DNA of 64,000 nt. It comes from Escherichia phage vB_vPM_PD06. The translations under genes were made by a program, and so were the position numbers. A model generated the notes under the pieces. That model saw only the letters and a list, made by a program, of their open reading frames with translations. It searched no databases and was not told the origin of the DNA. The stretch lies in the sequence record NC_052653.1; one strand, given 5' to 3'. How positions within the stretch are numbered: position 1 is the stretch's first letter; every line of letters begins with the position of its first letter. Shown piece after piece: positions 2,380-22,031 of this stretch.

Positions 2380-3088
2380 TAAAGTGACGACTTTCGGAGA
2401 TCCTATCACCAATATTACAGAAAAAGATTTTGGGCGTGTAGCAACAGATAAAGATGGTGTCTTAAGAATTCGTGTACAAGGCATTACAGCACAGGATGAA
2501 TATGCTGTGTATGTTTCAGGTCTTAATTATATTGATGATCGCATTACACAAAACTTTGCACTGATCGGTGGTGTAGAGAAAATGTACTGGGAAGATGAAA
2601 TTGTAACAAGTTATCCAGCAGGTATCATTGAGGTACACGGTGATCTTTTAGCAGCAGCCGAGAGAGGCGATATAGACGCTATAGCACACTGCTGTAACTG
2701 TTTTTGCACTATGGGTAGTGGTATTGCACCAAAAATTAAAAGCAAGTGGCCTGGTGCGTTTAAAGCAGATTGTGCCACTAAGCGTGGTGATTATAAAAAA
2801 TTAGGTACGTTTACTAAGTATACAGAAAACAATTTGACAATTTATAATTTATATGGACAATATGGTTATAGTCGTCGTGAGGAAGGTAAGCGTGACCTGA
2901 ATTATGAAGCTATCTACAATGCGTTAGATAGTATGGGAGACGATGTTGTATCTTCAGGCGGTAAAATTGTAGGTTTACCAATGCTTGGTTGTGGTTTGGC
3001 TGGAGGTTCTTGGAATATTGTAAAACTTATGATCGAAGAAACTCTAGTGAACAAAGGTTTAAATGTAATTGTTTACAAACTGAAATAA
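2372..3088 (+). CDS. macrodomain protein (ADP-ribose binding/hydrolase family) with ~85 aa N-terminal extension
   Basis: Macro motifs AHCCNCFCTMGSGIAPKIKSKWP and GLPMLGCGLAGGSW. The ATG at 2372 overlaps the PRTase stop (ATGTCTAA). The track start at 2255 lies inside the PRTase gene. Confidence 0.8.
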   Translation: MSNKVTTFGDPITNITEKDFGRVATDKDGVLRIRVQGITAQDEYAVYVSGLNYIDDRITQNFALIGGVEKMYWEDEIVTSYPAGIIEVHGDLLAAAERGDIDAIAHCCNCFCTMGSGIAPKIKSKWPGAFKADCATKRGDYKKLGTFTKYTENNLTIYNLYGQYGYSRREEGKRDLNYEAIYNALDSMGDDVVSSGGKIVGLPMLGCGLAGGSWNIVKLMIEETLVNKGLNVIVYKLK

Positions 3089-3097
3089 GGAGAAAGT

Positions 3098-3304
3098 ATG
3101 GCAGGTGTTTTAGCAGTATTAGGTTGTTTTATTGTTGTATTCTTGATTGTGTTAATCCCTAGTTGGCTACTGCTTTTAGCATACAACTATATGATTGACA
3201 TTATCGGTTTAGACTGGCATCATGTTCCTGTAACGTTTTGGAGTGTAGTCTGTGTGACGTTCATTCTTGCGGTACTTCGTGGTATCTTTCAATCTAACAA
3301 ATAA
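3098..3304 (+). CDS. small membrane protein (2 predicted TM helices)
   Basis: Hydrophobic sequence MAGVLAVLGCFIVVFLIVLIPSWLLLLAY...VVCVTFILAVL. An AGGAGA RBS is present. Confidence 0.65.
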   Translation: MAGVLAVLGCFIVVFLIVLIPSWLLLLAYNYMIDIIGLDWHHVPVTFWSVVCVTFILAVLRGIFQSNK

Positions 3305-3318
3305 GAGAGGATCTTTAT

Positions 3319-3567
3319 ATGCGTAAAGTAAATGTTGAAGTGCTTGAAAAATTTAAAAACACTCGTGATTGTACTATTGGTAAGGTTTATGAGGCTATTC
3401 TCCTTGAAGATGGAGATATTGTTCCTGCCCCGTATCACGCCTTTAATGGTCAGGTTAGCAAAGTGGAAGGTGGTCTTGCTGTTTGCTTTATTGATGATGT
3501 AGGTGATGCTGTAGCTTTCCCTATCATTAACAAAGAAGATAAACTTAAAATTACAGAACTGAACTAG
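3319..3567 (+). CDS. hypothetical protein (82 aa)
   Basis: ORF track; GAGAGG RBS upstream. Confidence 0.65.
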   Translation: MRKVNVEVLEKFKNTRDCTIGKVYEAILLEDGDIVPAPYHAFNGQVSKVEGGLAVCFIDDVGDAVAFPIINKEDKLKITELN

Positions 3568-3595
3568 TTGACTTTCTTTAAAAACAGTTTATAGT
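3568..3595 (+). promoter_or_regulatory. sigma70-like promoter TTGACT-16-TATAGT
   Basis: TTGACT at 3568..3573 and TATAGT at 3590..3595, immediately after the preceding stop codon and upstream of terC. Confidence 0.5.
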
Positions 3596-3607
3596 ATACG
3601 ACATATA

Positions 3608-3626
3608 GCGGAGGATTGTCCTCCGC
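3608..3626 (+). promoter_or_regulatory. 5' leader hairpin upstream of terC
   Basis: gcggagg-attgt-cctccgc (7 bp stem) between the putative promoter and the AGAGGAG RBS. Confidence 0.45.
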
Positions 3627-3644
3627 ATTAAAGAGGAGAAAAGA

Positions 3645-4622
3645 ATGCAACTGGGTTTCCCAATTATTGATGTGGTTGTTTTAGTGGGTATTTTAGTCTT
3701 GTCGATTTGTATTGATTTCTTCGGACACAGAGAAAACAAAGAAATCTCATTTAAATCTGCAATTGGCTGGTCAATTTTCTGGATTGGGGTATCATTAGCC
3801 TACTATGGTTTTGTATACTTCCAACACGGTGCTGATTTCGCGAGCTTGTTCTTGAGTGGGTATGTGTTGGAGAAATCTCTTTCTGTAGATAACTTAGTAG
3901 TATTTGTGGCAGTATTCGCAAGTTTTGGTATTAAAAGCACACACTTGCAACACAAGATTCTACTTTGGGGTATTGCAGGTGCGATTGTCTTCCGAGGTGT
4001 GTTTGTAGCAGTAGGCACTTACTTGTTGAGTTTGGGCTGGTATGTTAATATCTTCTTCGGTGCTGTCATCCTTTTCTGTGCAGCTAAAATGGTATTCGCT
4101 GGAGATAATGACGCAGAAGTTGATTACTCTAAACACTGGGCTACTCGCATTGTTCGTAAGCTGTTCCCTGTATCTGATCAGATGGATGGTGAGAAGTTCT
4201 TCACAATCAAAAATGGTGTTCGTGTAGCAACTCCTGCATTGGTTTGTGTGTTTGTAATGGAAATGGTTGACGTAATCTTTGCAGTAGACTCTGTTCCAGC
4301 AGTAATTGCAGTGACACAAGAACCTCTGCTTGTATTTTCTTCAATGCTGTGTGCAATTTTAGGTCTACGTGCTCTGTTCTTTGTCCTTAGTGTTGCACTG
4401 AAATATTTGGTTCATCTGGAGAAAGCAGTTATCGTAGTCCTGGTATTTGTGGGTGTAAAACTGATGTATCACCCGTTTGCAGAAACTCTGCACGCAAAAG
4501 TGAGTTTCCTGCCAGCACACATTGATCCGACGATCAGTATGTATATTGTGTTAGGTACTCTGGGGCTGGGTGTTATTGCAAGTTTAATCTTCCCTGAAAA
4601 AGAAGACCAGGCTGTTGCTTAA
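3645..4622 (+). CDS. terC: TerC-family integral membrane protein
   Basis: A 325 aa polytopic membrane protein with TerC/Alx-like blocks (EKSLSVDNLVVF, MEMVDVIFAVDSVPAV). Confidence 0.8.
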   Translation: MQLGFPIIDVVVLVGILVLSICIDFFGHRENKEISFKSAIGWSIFWIGVSLAYYGFVYFQHGADFASLFLSGYVLEKSLSVDNLVVFVAVFASFGIKSTHLQHKILLWGIAGAIVFRGVFVAVGTYLLSLGWYVNIFFGAVILFCAAKMVFAGDNDAEVDYSKHWATRIVRKLFPVSDQMDGEKFFTIKNGVRVATPALVCVFVMEMVDVIFAVDSVPAVIAVTQEPLLVFSSMLCAILGLRALFFVLSVALKYLVHLEKAVIVVLVFVGVKLMYHPFAETLHAKVSFLPAHIDPTISMYIVLGTLGLGVIASLIFPEKEDQAVA

Positions 4623-17490: not shown

Positions 17491-20400
17491 ATGGGAGCTT
17501 TTACTTTCGACATTGAAAGTAACAACTTGCTTAATGACGAAAGTGTAGATTACTTGGCAAGTCCATATCGTTTAAAAGATAGTTTTGCAATGCACTGTAT
17601 TGTGTGCGAAAGTCATGATACTGGAGAGATTATTGCTTTCCATGATGGTGATAAATATCTTTTCGATGGTCGTCCGTATATTGAGACTGACGGAAAGTAT
17701 GAATACCGACTGGAGGAATATGAGCATTTAGAATATACCCATTTCCCTCTTAAAGATTTTCCTGATTTTGTAAATGGAACAGGTAAATTTAAAGGTAATT
17801 CAAACTATAAAATTACCAAAGTAGTTGGACACAACATCATTAACTTCGACTTACTGGCAATTAAATTATTTTTTAAACTCAACTACAGTATTAAGTACAA
17901 TACTTGGGGTAATAGTAACATTGAAATTTGTGATACTATGATCTTAAGTAAGACACTAAACCCTGATCGCTTCGGTGGTCATAGTCTGGCAGAGTTATCT
18001 AAGAAAGCTGGAGGGGATGTTAAAATTGATTTTAGAAAAAACATTCCTGAAACTGAAAGATTTAGAACATTTGCAGCAGATATGCTGTATTACTGTATTT
18101 ACGATAACAAAGCTAACACCGCAGTGTTCCGTTATTTGATGGAAGAGTGGGGTGATTATAACAAGTGGTCTGAACCATTTAACTTAGAACAACGTGTAGC
18201 TGATATTATTACACGTCAAGAGCACCGTGGCTTTGCTTTCAATATGAAACAAGCAGAAGATAATATTCGTGATCTGGATGCTCGAATGGAAGCATGTCGT
18301 TTAGAGGCAGAACCTGTGCTACCTCCTAAACCTGCTACTAAAGGTTATTTGAAATCATTCATTCCACCTAAACTACAGTTTAAAAAGAATGGTGAGCCTT
18401 CAAGTAACATGATAAAGTTTGCAGAGAAACATTCTGGTGAACTTGTACAAAAAGAAGATGGTTGGTGGTTATTTGCATTAGGTAAAGAGTTTAAACTACC
18501 TATTCCAGCAGAAGAACCTATTTGTGATCCTACAGTACCTGCTACTTTAGACGACACTACACATATTAAAAATTGGTTAGTTGGTTTAGGTTGGAGTCCA
18601 TCTGAATATAAAGATAAAGATATCACTCTTAAATCTGGCACTAAGATTAAGAAAGATGAAGCACAAATGGAGAAAGCTATTCGTGACTATGTTGATCAAA
18701 CATTAGCATCTAACTTCTGCCAGGATAGATGTGATCATCTGGAGTGCACACCAGAAACTTTGGAATGGAAACTAAGAGATCGTATTGCTAAAGCTAAAGG
18801 TCGTGGTGTTAAAGTGCTTACTAACCCTTCCTTTACAAAAGGGCAAGAGAAGGATATTTGTCCTAACTTGGAAGCACTGGGTGAAAAGTTCCCTTATGCT
18901 ACGCAGATTGTGCAGTATCTTACGTATAAACATCGTAGAAACTCTATTCTAGGTGGTGGTGCTGATTGGGAAGAGGATGAAGAGGATTACGATAAAGGTT
19001 ATCTGGCGGCAGTAAGAGCTGATGGTCGTATACCAACTCCTGCTGCAACGTGTGATGCAGCTACGTCTCGTATGAAACATAGGTTAGTAGCAAATATCCC
19101 ACGTGTAACATCTCTGTACGGATATGAAATGCGTAACTTATTTGGTGTAGAAGTTCCAAAATACTTCCAAATTGGTTATGACTTTGATTCTCTTGAGGCA
19201 AAAATAGAATCACACTACTGTGTACCTATGGATGCACAAGCACTAACCCGTAAAGGTTGGGTTGGTTATCACGATCTACAAGAAGGGGATGAAATCTTAG
19301 GATATAACCCAGAAACAGGACTTAAAGAATGGACTAAAGTAAAAGGTAAGGTCTTCTATAAAAATAGTAAGACGTTTGAGATTAAAGGAAAATCCCATAC
19401 TTATCGTGCAACAGCAGATCACCGTTGGTATGTTAATACTCGTAGTACAGGGAATACTTATGTGCCTAAAGTCAGAACAACTGCCGAGCTTTGCACAGGA
19501 GATAACATTATTTGTAATGCTCCATTTAACATGGAACAAGATCAAGTAAATAGTTTAACTTCTGTTCAACAAGGTAAATGGGATGTTCCGTGGGTAGAAC
19601 GTGTAGTTAATATGTCTCATGCCGAGCGTGTGGCTTTCTTGGAAGGTTTTTTGATTGCGGATGGTTACTGGCACAAACATAAACAAAAACCTGTTTGGCG
19701 CTGGGCGCAGAACCCAGGAGAACTTTTTGAAGCAGCCTTAACTGCCTCATACCTGGTTCATGGGGGTAATATTTCTGTAGCCTTCAATACGAAAGACCAG
19801 AAAGTAAAAGTGGCAACGTTGGCTAACCGCTCTCACATCCCTGTTCAAAGTCTGACTATTGAAGAATGGGGTGTAGAAGATGTTTGGTGTCCACAAACAG
19901 AACTCGGTACATGGGTTATGCGTCAGAAAGACTGCATCACGATTACAGGGAATTGTTGGCGGTACGAGCAGGAACCACACGAATATTGTAATGCTCTATT
20001 GTTGGAAAAACCTAATGATGTTCATACAATGATGGCTCGACGTATTTCTGACACTATTGGTCGTAAGTTTGAACGAAGCCCTGCTAAATCTGTTAAGTAT
20101 GGTATTACTTATGGTGCTCAAGCTGCAAAAGTAGCAAAAACTATAGGTAGTGATATGTATACAGGACAGCTTGTATACGATGCTTTCTGGGAAGCTGCAA
20201 AACCTCTTGCGCTTCTTAAAGAACGTCTGCATGACTTTTGGGTTAAAACAGGTAAGAAATACATTCTTGGTATTGATGGTAGGAAAGTACCTACACGATC
20301 TGCACACGCAATACTTAACTCTCTGTTCCAGAGTGGTGGTGTTATTTGTGCAAAAAGAGCAATGGTTATCTACGATGATCTTATCGAAGAAGAAGGATTA

Positions 20401-20805
20401 GCTGTTGACTTTTTTGTTGATGACTGGAAAAATAAGTCATTCGTTCAACAAATGATTGCATATCACGATGAAGCACAGCTTGAAGTAACTCGTGATCTGG
20501 TGCATTTTAAATGGTTCTCTAAAGAATCTTTAGGTTGGACTCAAGTTGATGATCCAGAAGAACAAAAGAAAATTGATAAAGAATGTTTGGATAAAGTTAA
20601 TGCCTGGAAAGAAGAGGAAGAGAAACGTACTGGCAAGATTTGGGCTAACGTACATGAATCTCCGAAAGGTGGTTGGTTTACAGCCTACAGTCGTGCTGGA
20701 GAATTAGCATCTATCGCTGTTAATAAAGCTGGTGAGTATTACAATCTTAATGTACCTCTAACTGCTGGTTACGATGTTGGTAGTTCATGGTCAACTTGTC
20801 ACTGA
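17491..20805 (+). CDS. family A DNA polymerase with 3'-5' exonuclease domain, interrupted by an intein
   Basis: Exo motifs FDIESNN, HNIINFD and YCIYD. Pol motif A GYDFDSLEAKI, motif B RSPAKSVKYGITYG and motif C AYHDEAQ. A 245 aa insertion follows motif A. Confidence 0.9.
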   Translation: MGAFTFDIESNNLLNDESVDYLASPYRLKDSFAMHCIVCESHDTGEIIAFHDGDKYLFDGRPYIETDGKYEYRLEEYEHLEYTHFPLKDFPDFVNGTGKFKGNSNYKITKVVGHNIINFDLLAIKLFFKLNYSIKYNTWGNSNIEICDTMILSKTLNPDRFGGHSLAELSKKAGGDVKIDFRKNIPETERFRTFAADMLYYCIYDNKANTAVFRYLMEEWGDYNKWSEPFNLEQRVADIITRQEHRGFAFNMKQAEDNIRDLDARMEACRLEAEPVLPPKPATKGYLKSFIPPKLQFKKNGEPSSNMIKFAEKHSGELVQKEDGWWLFALGKEFKLPIPAEEPICDPTVPATLDDTTHIKNWLVGLGWSPSEYKDKDITLKSGTKIKKDEAQMEKAIRDYVDQTLASNFCQDRCDHLECTPETLEWKLRDRIAKAKGRGVKVLTNPSFTKGQEKDICPNLEALGEKFPYATQIVQYLTYKHRRNSILGGGADWEEDEEDYDKGYLAAVRADGRIPTPAATCDAATSRMKHRLVANIPRVTSLYGYEMRNLFGVEVPKYFQIGYDFDSLEAKIESHYCVPMDAQALTRKGWVGYHDLQEGDEILGYNPETGLKEWTKVKGKVFYKNSKTFEIKGKSHTYRATADHRWYVNTRSTGNTYVPKVRTTAELCTGDNIICNAPFNMEQDQVNSLTSVQQGKWDVPWVERVVNMSHAERVAFLEGFLIADGYWHKHKQKPVWRWAQNPGELFEAALTASYLVHGGNISVAFNTKDQKVKVATLANRSHIPVQSLTIEEWGVEDVWCPQTELGTWVMRQKDCITITGNCWRYEQEPHEYCNALLLEKPNDVHTMMARRISDTIGRKFERSPAKSVKYGITYGAQAAKVAKTIGSDMYTGQLVYDAFWEAAKPLALLKERLHDFWVKTGKKYILGIDGRKVPTRSAHAILNSLFQSGGVICAKRAMVIYDDLIEEEGLAVDFFVDDWKNKSFVQQMIAYHDEAQLEVTRDLVHFKWFSKESLGWTQVDDPEEQKKIDKECLDKVNAWKEEEEKRTGKIWANVHESPKGGWFTAYSRAGELASIAVNKAGEYYNLNVPLTAGYDVGSSWSTCH
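19219..19953 (+). mobile_element. intein (245 aa) with a LAGLIDADG-like segment, inserted just downstream of polymerase motif A
   Basis: Begins CVPMDAQALTRKGW. Block B-like RATADHRW. Contains VAFLEGFLIADGYW. Ends CITITGN followed by +1 Cys (CWRYEQ). The flanking ESHY/CWRY aligns with the continuous T7-type pol sequence after motif A. Confidence 0.8.
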
Positions 20806-20832: not shown

Positions 20833-21429
20833 ATGCTTACCGTGTATGGTGAAGGTATTAATGATTTGGAAGGCGAGAGTACACTACCTGGTAGTAAGAA
20901 ACTAACGCCGCATTATATGAAATGGATGGCTATGTTGGGGAGGTGTTACTCCCCTTGTCAACAAGAACGTGATCCTTGTTATAAGGGGGTGACGGTTTGT
21001 GAAGAATGGAAGTTGTTCTCCAATTTCTATTCCTGGTTGCAAACTTGGGATAACTGGGAAAACTTAGAACTTGATAAAGATATTATAGGAGGGAGAGTTT
21101 ACTCTCCCGATACCTGTCTTTTAGTAACAGGAGATCTTAATAAGTTCTTAGCTTATAGAGTAAGTAAAAGATCTCATGGGACTATGGTAGGCTGTAGTTA
21201 CGAGAAAGATCGTAAAAAGTATAAAGCCAACATAAAAGTAGGCAGTCGCATGAAAACGCTGGGACGTTTTAATACTGAAATTGAAGCGCATCTTTGCTGG
21301 TTGAAAGCTAAGGCAGAGCAGCTTACAAAATTCTTTGAAACTGAAGATGAAAGAGTTGTTCCACATCTTAAAGCACTATGTAATGAAATGCTTGAGCATG
21401 TAGAACAACATAAAGAGTGGACACGATAG
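20833..21429 (+). CDS. AP2-domain DNA-binding protein, free-standing homing-endonuclease-like
   Basis: N-terminal W..M..RC......YKGVTVCEEW..F..F motif and C-terminal AP2-like GCSYEKDRKKYKANIKVGSRMKTLGRFNTEIEA. Sits directly after the polymerase gene. Confidence 0.55.
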   Translation: MLTVYGEGINDLEGESTLPGSKKLTPHYMKWMAMLGRCYSPCQQERDPCYKGVTVCEEWKLFSNFYSWLQTWDNWENLELDKDIIGGRVYSPDTCLLVTGDLNKFLAYRVSKRSHGTMVGCSYEKDRKKYKANIKVGSRMKTLGRFNTEIEAHLCWLKAKAEQLTKFFETEDERVVPHLKALCNEMLEHVEQHKEWTR

Positions 21430-21437
21430 GAGAAAAT

Positions 21438-22031
21438 ATGAATATTGAAGATCAAAAAGTACGAGCTTTAGAAGTATTACGTATGTGCCAACTGGTAGAT
21501 CCGTTTGCAATTGTAGCTGGCGGCGCTGTACGCGACTGGCGATTAGAAACACCTGCGCAAGATATTGACATTTACTTGCGTATGCCTAACCACAATACAA
21601 CCGTACTGGTAGAGAAATTTTTGATGTTGGGTGTTGGTGCACGTAATGTTAAACAACTTACTAAGCAAACAGAACACACTTATGCCGAACTACCACATTT
21701 GAAATGGGTATTTGAAGCATACTATAAAGATCTTAAGTTTAACTTTATGATCATGGAAGAAGGTGTACGCAGTGAAATCGTATGGAACTTTGACGTAGCT
21801 ATTTGCCTGTGTTACTGGGATGGTCTAAATTATGTATATCATCCAGATTTTGAATTTGCATTGAAAACTAATATTTGCACTATTAATCACCGATACACAG
21901 GTAAAGAAGCACACGTCCGTAAAATGGCAGAACGTTTCCCTATGTTCCGCTTTGTAAAAGACGTTTTCATTCCCAAAGAACCAGAAGTACGTACACTGGA
22001 TTCGTTTAACAACGAAGAATTTAAGATTTAA
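21438..22031 (+). CDS. minimal Pol-beta-type nucleotidyltransferase of the tRNA CCA-adding / poly(A) polymerase family (head domain only)
   Basis: Signature AGGAVRDWRLETPAQDIDIY (GGxVRD...DxD). Only 197 aa. AGGAGAAAA RBS before the ATG at 21438. Confidence 0.65.
   Translation: MNIEDQKVRALEVLRMCQLVDPFAIVAGGAVRDWRLETPAQDIDIYLRMPNHNTTVLVEKFLMLGVGARNVKQLTKQTEHTYAELPHLKWVFEAYYKDLKFNFMIMEEGVRSEIVWNFDVAICLCYWDGLNYVYHPDFEFALKTNICTINHRYTGKEAHVRKMAERFPMFRFVKDVFIPKEPEVRTLDSFNNEEFKI

Follow-up and report, generated by a model that had tools for sequence, protein, structure and literature searches.

Why does the DNA polymerase gene of an Escherichia phage carry 245 codons that the allele with the most similar flanks does without, and what might the encoded residues do? 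We pursued this question in a 64,000-nucleotide (nt) stretch of phage vB_vPM_PD06 (NC_052653.1), which as a whole is referred to as the window, position 1 being its first letter. The source phage is a phi92-like myovirus of the genus Justusliebigvirus, subfamily Stephanstirmvirinae, and the gene encodes a family A DNA polymerase that is interrupted in its palm domain, between the motif A and motif B peptides. A previous interpretation, hereafter the sequence-only reading, had proposed an intein whose homing endonuclease may be degenerate. Our analysis leads us to regard the insert as very probably a splicing-competent, horizontally mobile intein that houses a selectively maintained LAGLIDADG domain with a single motif; splicing and nuclease activity are what we infer.

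The Polymerase Insert as an Intein

The gene is 99.2–99.3% identical at the nt level to phi92 gp159 and its counterparts in vB_vPM_PD114, SD2, and PaulScherrer, and Pfam DNA_pol_A matches polymerase residues 839–1002 above the curated cut-off (E 1.1e-10), a match that falls in the C-terminal host segment (C-extein). The precision of the insertion becomes apparent from alleles that lack it: In VEcB (MT932211), whose exteins are 99.2% identical to those of the window, exactly 735 base pairs (bp) are absent and the host residues are joined as ESHY↓CWRYEQ (the arrow marks the junction), with the empty-site DNA reading CACTACTGT↓TGGCGG. Neither the protein nor the DNA alignment of the two genes differs at the insert by anything beyond these 735 bp. 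Within a phage collection, 53 records of Justusliebigvirus type match the gene at at least 95% identity; nine of them contain the 735-bp insert, and the remaining ones align over 78% of the query in two pieces that together make up exactly 2580 bp. The same exact absence is found in VEcB, Mt1B1_P17, and about 40 other records, and the pattern repeats itself in Phapecoctavirus, where the insert is present in anhysbys and absent from Mt1B1_P17. JohannJBalmer and EmilieFrey, two siblings in the BASEL collection, are intein-less as well. With a TGT at either junction, the DNA boundary of the intein is ambiguous by 3 nt, i.e., one codon. The chemically correct frame is the one already chosen in the sequence-only reading, which runs from Cys1 to the terminal Asn in front of Cys+1, and every coordinate and peptide given there (245 residues at 19219–19953, CVPMDAQALTRKGW, TADH, VAFLEGFLIADGYW, ITGN, and the flanks) checks out on translation.

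A word-indexed homolog search retrieved only nine relatives, seven of which went into a profile. The exhaustive search with the family profile, which covered 1.84 billion cluster representatives, yielded 7764 proteins at E ≤ 1e-3 and 517 cluster representatives at E ≤ 1e-30. Compared with solved structures, the profile has only inteins and HINT domains among its top matches (AceL NrdHF, 5.8e-6; Spl DnaX, 6.7e-6; NrdJ-1, 2e-5), and one family member, P0050, passes the Pfam Intein_splicing model with 38.4 bits against a cut-off of 35.8. The AlphaFold (AF2) model of the intein has a predicted template modeling score (pTM) of 0.78 and predicted local distance difference test values (pLDDT) of about 85–95 across most of the splicing core. 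With this model, Foldseek returned 41 PDB matches at E ≤ 1e-3, all of them inteins, BIL or hedgehog HINT domains; TliVMA, PI-SceI, PhoVMA, and PI-PfuI rank first, followed by the class 3 mini-inteins AceL NrdHF, MchDnaB1, and MsmDnaB1. The sequence profile, the predicted HINT fold, and the catalytic residues all identify the 245-residue insert as an intein. The original proposal of an intein directly behind motif A agrees with the empty alleles, the junction residues, and the top profile and fold matches, all of which are inteins or HINT domains.

The sequence-only reading had itself named a counter-scenario, namely that related polymerases might contain the same residues as a conserved integral domain: Near relatives lack them precisely, which favors an intein, and the intein-less alleles rule out an integral polymerase domain. 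We consider it extremely improbable that the insert is no intein at all, be it an integral accessory domain or a fused mobile open reading frame (ORF) kept in the mature enzyme: While excision is a prediction here and this single sequence has no significant Pfam or NCBIfam intein match, siblings with 99% identical exteins lack the insert exactly, it splits the polymerase between two motif peptides, a HINT fold and every splice-junction residue are present, and the same element is found in unrelated host proteins.

The existence of the intein is not new, since the identical sequence is already annotated as such in GenBank. The PaulScherrer record (Bas60; MZ501100, bas60_0044, BASEL collection) describes an “intein-containing DNA polymerase precursor” with the mat_peptide features “DNA polymerase” and “intein”, and SD2 (PQ821640) bears the same product name. 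Both inteins are 100% identical to that of the window at the nt level and lie in the same gene at the same site, with no biological difference. The PaulScherrer mat_peptide is shifted by one codon, starting at Val2 and ending at Cys+1 (MZ501100 3232–3966, corresponding to window 19222–19956), because TGT is repeated at both junctions. Most sibling records, phi92 included, label the gene just DNA polymerase or hypothetical protein and mention no intein, and the BASEL paper states that inteins were identified by comparative genomics and says nothing further (PMC8594841). The element is known to databases but uncharacterized in the literature searched.

Splicing Residues Across the Family

Which residues could carry out the splicing reaction? 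Among the best 150 cluster representatives, 123 match the profile end to end within about 240–260 residues. The conservation figures given here and in Table 1 refer to 124 aligned sequences, comprising that of the window and 123 representatives of 50%-identity clusters, which are 23–51% identical to it. Family members were recovered mostly from metagenome-derived proteins and phage genomes, and they share a signature of Cys1, T-x-x-H-x-W in block B, V-W-C in block F, and a C-terminal T-I-T-G-N that is followed by Ser, Thr, or Cys. This +1 residue is Ser in 52%, Thr in 25%, and Cys in 22% of the family and one of the three in all 123 representatives. The catalytic inventory originally listed, i.e., Cys1, the T-x-x-H of block B, the terminal Asn, and Cys+1, is complete, with Cys1, Thr65, His68, and Asn245 conserved to 100%.

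Two further assignments follow from alignments with solved inteins. In block B, the family consensus “TpdHrW” lies over “SPNHRM” of AceL NrdHF, so that Trp70 occupies position B:12; Met70 is the documented B:12 residue of AceL NrdHF (PMC7891396). In block F, the family consensus “edvwCptT” aligns with “EDTYDIQT” of the class 1 intein NrdJ-1, and Cys224 is placed at F:4 because it coincides with the canonical F:4 Asp of NrdJ-1.

The usual penultimate His (G:6) is absent, with Gly244 in its place. The sequence-only reading had noticed this Gly and taken it for an irregularity: Its presence stands, but it is no oddity of this copy, since Gly244 is conserved to 99% and such replacements are documented. 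In phage inteins, Gly, Lys, or Ser take the place of the G:6 His, and restoring the His can impair splicing (PMC5050341). A case in point is the RDF intein in gp51 of mycobacteriophage Bethlehem, which shares the penultimate Gly with the window intein and splices better with its native Gly than with an engineered His, a change that makes the precursor accumulate (PMC5050341). Mycobacteriophage inteins without the penultimate His are, however, described as class 1 inteins lacking the Trp-Cys-Thr (WCT) triplet, whereas the window intein has it.

Class 1 or Class 3

The signature of the rarer class 3 inteins consists of Trp at B:12, Cys at F:4, and Thr at G:5, usually accompanied by His at G:6 and Asn at G:7 (Tori et al. 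2010, PMC2807308). The peptides T-A-D-H-R-W, V-W-C, and I-T-G-N of the window fit the WCT triplet exactly, and W70, C224, and T243 are conserved to 99–100%. Going by the aligned residues, a full class 3 triplet, which had been missed before, coexists with Cys1. At position 1, where class 3 inteins have no Cys, Ser, or Thr nucleophile, Cys1 is invariant in the 124 sequences; at +1, where Ser or Thr is typical of class 3 though not absolute, the window copy has Cys, and Ser or Thr is present in 77% of the family. As of 2016, Bvi IcmO was the only class 3 intein known with Cys+1 (PMC5222942). The window intein lies outside class 3 as usually defined, because that definition entails the lack of an N-terminal nucleophile and Cys1 is invariant.

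Such a combination has precedents: Tori et al. list three WCT inteins with Ser1/Cys1 (supplemental Table 2; PMC2807308), which, compared by description only, show the same hybrid signature of an N-terminal nucleophile plus WCT. In the case of the window intein, this hybrid signature defines a family with 517 cluster representatives at E ≤ 1e-30. Tori and Perler reportedly studied WCT inteins with Ser1/Cys1 further in 2011 and found that they take the class 3 route. With the class 3 inteins Bethlehem DnaB, Dra Snf2, Msm/Mch DnaB1, and AceL NrdHF, the window intein shares the WCT triplet and the association with phages; AceL NrdHF is moreover its best sequence-profile match in the PDB and likewise lacks the G:6 His, and the best fold matches of its model include class 3 mini-inteins. 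It differs from them in its invariant Cys1, in Cys rather than Ser or Thr at +1, and in its host protein, which is a polymerase and not a helicase or ATPase.

Either of the two cysteines, Cys1 or Cys224, might start splicing. A standard class 1 mechanism, in which Cys1 initiates and Cys224 either replaces the F:4 Asp as coordinator or engages in a regulatory disulfide bond with Cys1 or Cys+1, is an option that we entertain with some doubt. Cys1, Thr at B:7, His at B:10, Asn, and Cys+1 suffice for splicing by the canonical four-step pathway; in class 1 inteins, the residue at F:4 has a coordinating role (PMC2807308), and catalytic cysteines are documented as redox switches in inteins (PMC6195587). 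What such a mechanism leaves unexplained is why Trp at B:12 and Thr at G:5 co-occur with Cys at F:4 (99–100%), a covariation that is otherwise specific to class 3.

Conversely, the reaction might follow a pure class 3 course: Cys224 would attack the N-terminal junction, a branched intermediate would form at block F, and the N-extein would be passed on to Cys+1, with Cys1 being dispensable. This course appears rather unlikely to us, as a dispensable residue should vary, as is the case at position 1 of canonical class 3 inteins, and Cys1 is retained in 124 of 124 sequences, even though the almost invariant triplet is the very feature by which class 3 is defined (PMC2807308), the frequency of Ser and Thr at +1 is typical of that class (PMC5222942), and the three WCT inteins with Ser1/Cys1 have been on record since 2010 (PMC2807308). 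A later operational definition of class 3, moreover, demands that there be no N-terminal Cys (PMC7891396), and grafting WCT onto a class 1 intein gave no class 3 splicing (PMC7664689), so that the triplet alone does not fix the mechanism.

The Single LAGLIDADG-Type Domain

Between block B and block F, the intein accommodates a domain with one LAGLIDADG-like motif only; sequence, alignment, and domain model agree with the sequence-only reading in this respect. Modeled by itself, the domain adopts an alpha-beta-beta-alpha-beta-beta topology (pLDDT 92, pTM 0.81), and the best fold matches of a 97-residue query are I-CeuI, PI-SceI (root-mean-square deviation 2.2–3.1 Å), I-DmoI, PI-PfuI, and TliVMA with a probability of about 1 and Foldseek E values of 0.02–0.3. 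The best PDB profile matches of the domain are all LAGLIDADG enzymes as well (E 0.04–0.9), and Pfam LAGLIDADG_3 matches 15 of 40 family members, mostly below threshold and at best with E 3e-4. With the two-motif enzymes PI-SceI, PI-PfuI, and TliVMA and the one-motif homodimers I-CeuI and I-CreI, the insert shares the LAGLIDADG core and an acidic residue that closes helix 1, and it is placed between blocks B and F as in PI-SceI. What sets it apart is that the intein contains one motif only, within a unit of some 90 residues whose hairpins are short. The searchable literature yielded no description of an intein with a single-motif LAGLIDADG domain, which is weak negative evidence.

How strongly is this domain maintained? 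Residue 148 is Asp in 89% and Glu in 8% of the sequences (97% acidic), and Gly149 and Gln164 are each conserved to 98%. The conserved positions comprise the hydrophobic faces of both helices, D/E148 and Gly149 where helix 1 ends, and Gln164 where strand 2 ends, with a variable sheet surface; the mean column information is 1.78 bits, compared with 2.2 and 2.56 bits in the splicing core. Among the coliphage copies, the ratio of nonsynonymous to synonymous substitution rates (dN/dS, ω) is 0.037–0.053 for the insert domain, on small counts of synonymous to nonsynonymous changes (13:2, 14:3, and 5:1), and 0.02–0.04 for the N-terminal splicing lobe, and the C-terminal lobe has zero nonsynonymous changes. 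A more divergent copy, that of KP13-16, is in line with this (47.5 synonymous versus 15.5 nonsynonymous changes), and the intein as a whole is under strong purifying selection (ω 0.02–0.03). We judge the LAGLIDADG-type domain to be functional, because a relic would not show such low dN/dS and such conservation; from its conserved residues and modeled fold, its predicted role lies most plausibly in DNA recognition or cleavage.

Distribution and Mobility

Altogether, 32 phage records carry the insert. When copies from different genera are compared, nt identity amounts to 92.1% in the intein and to 72–80% in the exteins. Relative to PaulScherrer, the window shows 0 of 735 differences in the intein and 37 of 2580 in the exteins; relative to cardinal, the corresponding values are 35 of 735 and 32 of 2580, and the exteins nearest to those of the window belong to the intein-less VEcB (20 differences). 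The history of the intein is decoupled from that of its host gene. Related inteins occupy the same site behind motif A (...LE.R..HY↓[T/C][W/Y][R/K]Y) in the distant PolA proteins P0041, P0044, and P0060, and they are also found at the motif B site and in unrelated proteins, one being a small protein interrupted at FDVYP↓SAYA. We propose active homing of the window intein by its own putative nuclease, with recombination between co-infecting phages as the alternative. The guanine-cytosine content of the intein (41.5%) deviates little from that of the exteins (37–39%) and is not informative.

Several further observations concern the same subject. Window positions 19834–19953 (intein codons 206–245) contain 12 synonymous differences (dS ~0.78) from cardinal and anhysbys, which are mutually identical there; this suggests recombination inside the intein, since its remainder is much closer to these two phages. 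The metagenomic proteins P0014 and P0020 each have two family inteins about 20 residues apart, at the sites QK[LM][AV]E↓SFQG and HKFD[YH]↓CYPR, which shows repeated invasion of a single host gene to be a recurring event in this family. The record OZ035773, labeled “Justusliebigvirus VEcB”, has the intein, and the VEcB exemplar MT932211 is without it. Eight Pseudomonas syringae phage records give weak tblastn matches to the intein. The homologous polymerase genes of many PAK_P1-like Pseudomonas phages are annotated in two or three pieces that are separated by genes for “endonuclease VII” or “HNH homing endonuclease”. Mobile elements of different kinds thus seem to have targeted this polymerase family repeatedly.

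A Sister Intein at Motif B

A second intein of the same family, present in the same host gene of other phages, gives a closer view of such mobility. It has 324 residues and two LAGLIDADG motifs and occurs in the Phapecoctavirus phages nieznany, ukendt, and nepoznato as well as in “Campylobacter phage C3”, which has a Justusliebigvirus backbone. In the nieznany polymerase stretch it occupies coordinates 3001–3972, and it is inserted between KSVKYG and (I→C)TYGAQ, 153 nt downstream of the site of the window intein. The two inteins are 32% identical and have in common CVP.D..., T..H.W, V[WF]C, and T[IL]TGN↓C; they differ in length, in the number of motifs (two versus one), and in their sites at motif B and behind motif A, respectively. 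In the first multi-gene MAFFT alignment, the intein and C-extein-flank columns of nieznany and C3 were invalid, inteins of different sites having been aligned with each other, and the comparison was redone.

The C3 copy is 99.8% identical to that of nieznany. Its flanks are of nieznany type over about 60 consecutive informative sites (about 190 nt) upstream and about 10 nt downstream, and the rest of the gene is of VEcB type. This sharp, asymmetric co-conversion tract is a classical homing footprint and direct evidence of recent homing by the sister intein. The tract overwrites the site of the window intein by changing the +1 Cys codon to Thr and ESHYCWRYEQEPHEY to ESHYTWRYDNPDHAY, and no allele among those examined has both inteins. 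Concerning the labels of such records, five designated Campylobacter phage (including MG065656; one is flagged UNVERIFIED) match this coliphage polymerase gene at 97% identity, which makes the Campylobacter host labels look doubtful.

Proposed Mechanism and Its Standing

Taken as an intein that splices and homes, the element would act as follows. After translation, the 245-residue HINT domain would excise and join ...ESHY to CWRY..., giving the 859-residue polymerase that intein-less siblings encode directly. The precursor would indeed have to splice, because the intein-bearing phages (phi92, PaulScherrer, SD2, cardinal, and UAB_1) have been isolated in culture and the insert separates motifs A and B of the polymerase. 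As our best guess, Cys1 would make the first thioester, and Cys224 would be an obligatory catalytic partner at F:4, either as relay and branch point or as an activator in place of the usual Asp; both cysteines seem to be needed, because both are invariant. Cyclization of Asn245, which here, like in other phage inteins, would dispense with a G:6 His, and the subsequent acyl shift at Cys+1 would complete splicing. The one-motif LAGLIDADG unit would most likely serve DNA recognition or cleavage in homing, whereby a full active site would be possible only as a dimer of two inteins.

A bolder version of this scheme, to which we assign a low likelihood, sees in the family an abundant lineage that bridges class 1 and class 3, with both cysteines obligatory (e.g., in a relay from Cys1 via Cys F:4 to the +1 Ser, Thr, or Cys) and with a minimal one-motif LAGLIDADG unit active only as a dimer. 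If true, the family would be mechanistically intermediate on the route by which class 3 inteins have been proposed to arise in phages, and its LAGLIDADG endonuclease would be the first homodimeric one to reside in an intein.

A number of findings weigh against a splicing and homing intein with a functional nuclease domain. Scanned as a single sequence, the insert gives only LAGLIDADG_3 (E 0.084) and no intein model in Pfam, no match in NCBIfam, and sub-threshold matches only in the PDB, so that profiles were needed. The LAGLIDADG matches at the domain level stay under the significance thresholds (E 0.02–0.9), and LAGLIDADG folds without nuclease function exist, with WhiA and the bI3 maturase being equally good fold matches. 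Since the profile used to pick the 123 representatives contained the insert domain, the prevalence of the one-motif architecture is overstated. Dyad symmetry at the empty site reaches at most 7 of 11 half-site pairs, which is within the background for the gene and disfavors a homodimeric nuclease. Around the window intein, no convincing co-conversion tract was detected, only two Phapecoctavirus-type sites within 50 nt downstream, and the patchy distribution could therefore stem from ordinary recombination between co-infecting phages.

These last points would also suit a dead endonuclease, as the sequence-only reading had suspected: a leftover half of a two-motif enzyme that serves as a structural linker, in an intein that persists by vertical descent and ordinary recombination. 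The nieznany intein has two motifs (LGWLLSDGYY and FLEAFWMADGH), and in the alignment with it the 245-residue intein of the window, with one motif only, is missing the first half-domain. Loss of the domain does occur, as mini members without it exist (P0006, 163 residues, near-identical to the 245-residue P0002; P0009, 142 residues; also P0008). A relic should drift, however, yet the ω of the domain is on a par with that of the splicing core and its column information is 1.78 bits against 2.2–2.6; Asp/Glu, Gly, and Gln are kept in 97–98% of representatives that are at most 50% identical to each other; the one-motif form of about 245 residues recurs and is dominant among the best 150 family representatives; and the divergence of the host genes predates the intein. 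The suspected degeneration is not borne out by these data, and we regard a dead endonuclease as unlikely.

Feature Coordinates and Neighboring Genes

The coordinates of the features are compiled in Table 1. Two ORFs adjoin the polymerase gene downstream. The first (20833–21429, + strand, 198 residues) has no Pfam match at E ≤ 0.1; an AP2-type likeness of its C-terminal half was seen by eye and not confirmed. As an AP2-type trans-acting homing nuclease this ORF was rejected, given that it has no Pfam match and that an ORF of the same size adjoins the intein-less VEcB allele. The second (21417–22031, + strand, 204 residues) shows a weak match to the PolyA_pol head domain (E 0.0016, below the cut-off), in keeping with a nearby gene of Phapecoctavirus relatives that is annotated as “tRNA nucleotidyltransferase / poly(A) polymerase”.

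Table 1. Features of the intein-containing polymerase gene in the window; percentages denote conservation.
Feature	Position	Strand	Remarks
Intein-containing family A DNA polymerase precursor gene	17491–20805	+	ORF, 1104 residues plus stop
N-extein, 576 residues	17491–19218	+	Last residues are the motif A peptide GYDFDSLEAKIESHY (19174–19218)
Intein, 245 residues, Cys1...Asn245 (CVPMD...ITGN, then C)	19219–19953	+	Alternative DNA edges 19222–19956
Block A CVPMDAQALTRKGW	19219–19260	+	Cys1 codon 19219–19221 (100%)
Block B SHTYRATADHRWYV	19393–19434	+	Thr65 (B:7) 19411–19413 (100%); His68 (B:10) 19420–19422 (100%); Trp70 (B:12) 19426–19428 (99%)
Inserted single LAGLIDADG-type domain, residues 116–205, with Gln164 at 19708–19710	19564–19833	+	Between blocks B and F
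Motif AFLEGFLIADG	19633–19665	+	Asp148 19660–19662
Block F DVWCPQTELGTWVMRQ	19879–19926	+	Cys224 (F:4) 19888–19890 (100%)
Block G CITITGN↓C	19933–19956	+	Thr243 (G:5, 100%); Gly244 (G:6, 99%); Asn245 (G:7, 100%); Cys+1 19954–19956
C-extein, 283 residues	19954–20802	+	Begins CWRYEQEPHEY...DVH; holds motif B RSPAKSVKYGITYG (20074–20115)
Empty site of the sister intein	20103–20104	+	Between Gly871 and Ile872, inside motif B

Conclusion

As far as annotation is concerned, the locus is ordinary: An essential phage polymerase is very probably made through protein splicing, and public records of identical copies already say so. What is added here is a large Cys1+WCT family, a maintained one-motif LAGLIDADG domain, and the co-conversion tract of a neighboring intein, which are leads for specialists rather than a surprise. 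Because a class 1 N-terminal Cys and a full WCT triplet are kept together, the intein offers an easy coliphage system for studying the origin of class 3 and the question of which cysteine acts first. The strong purifying selection on the one-motif LAGLIDADG domain raises the possibility of an intein endonuclease that depends on dimerization. Small, fast, His-independent inteins from culturable phages are moreover of practical interest for protein engineering. Finally, with two related inteins 153 nt apart, one of which overwrites the site of the other by co-conversion, these phages provide a natural system for the competition between selfish elements.

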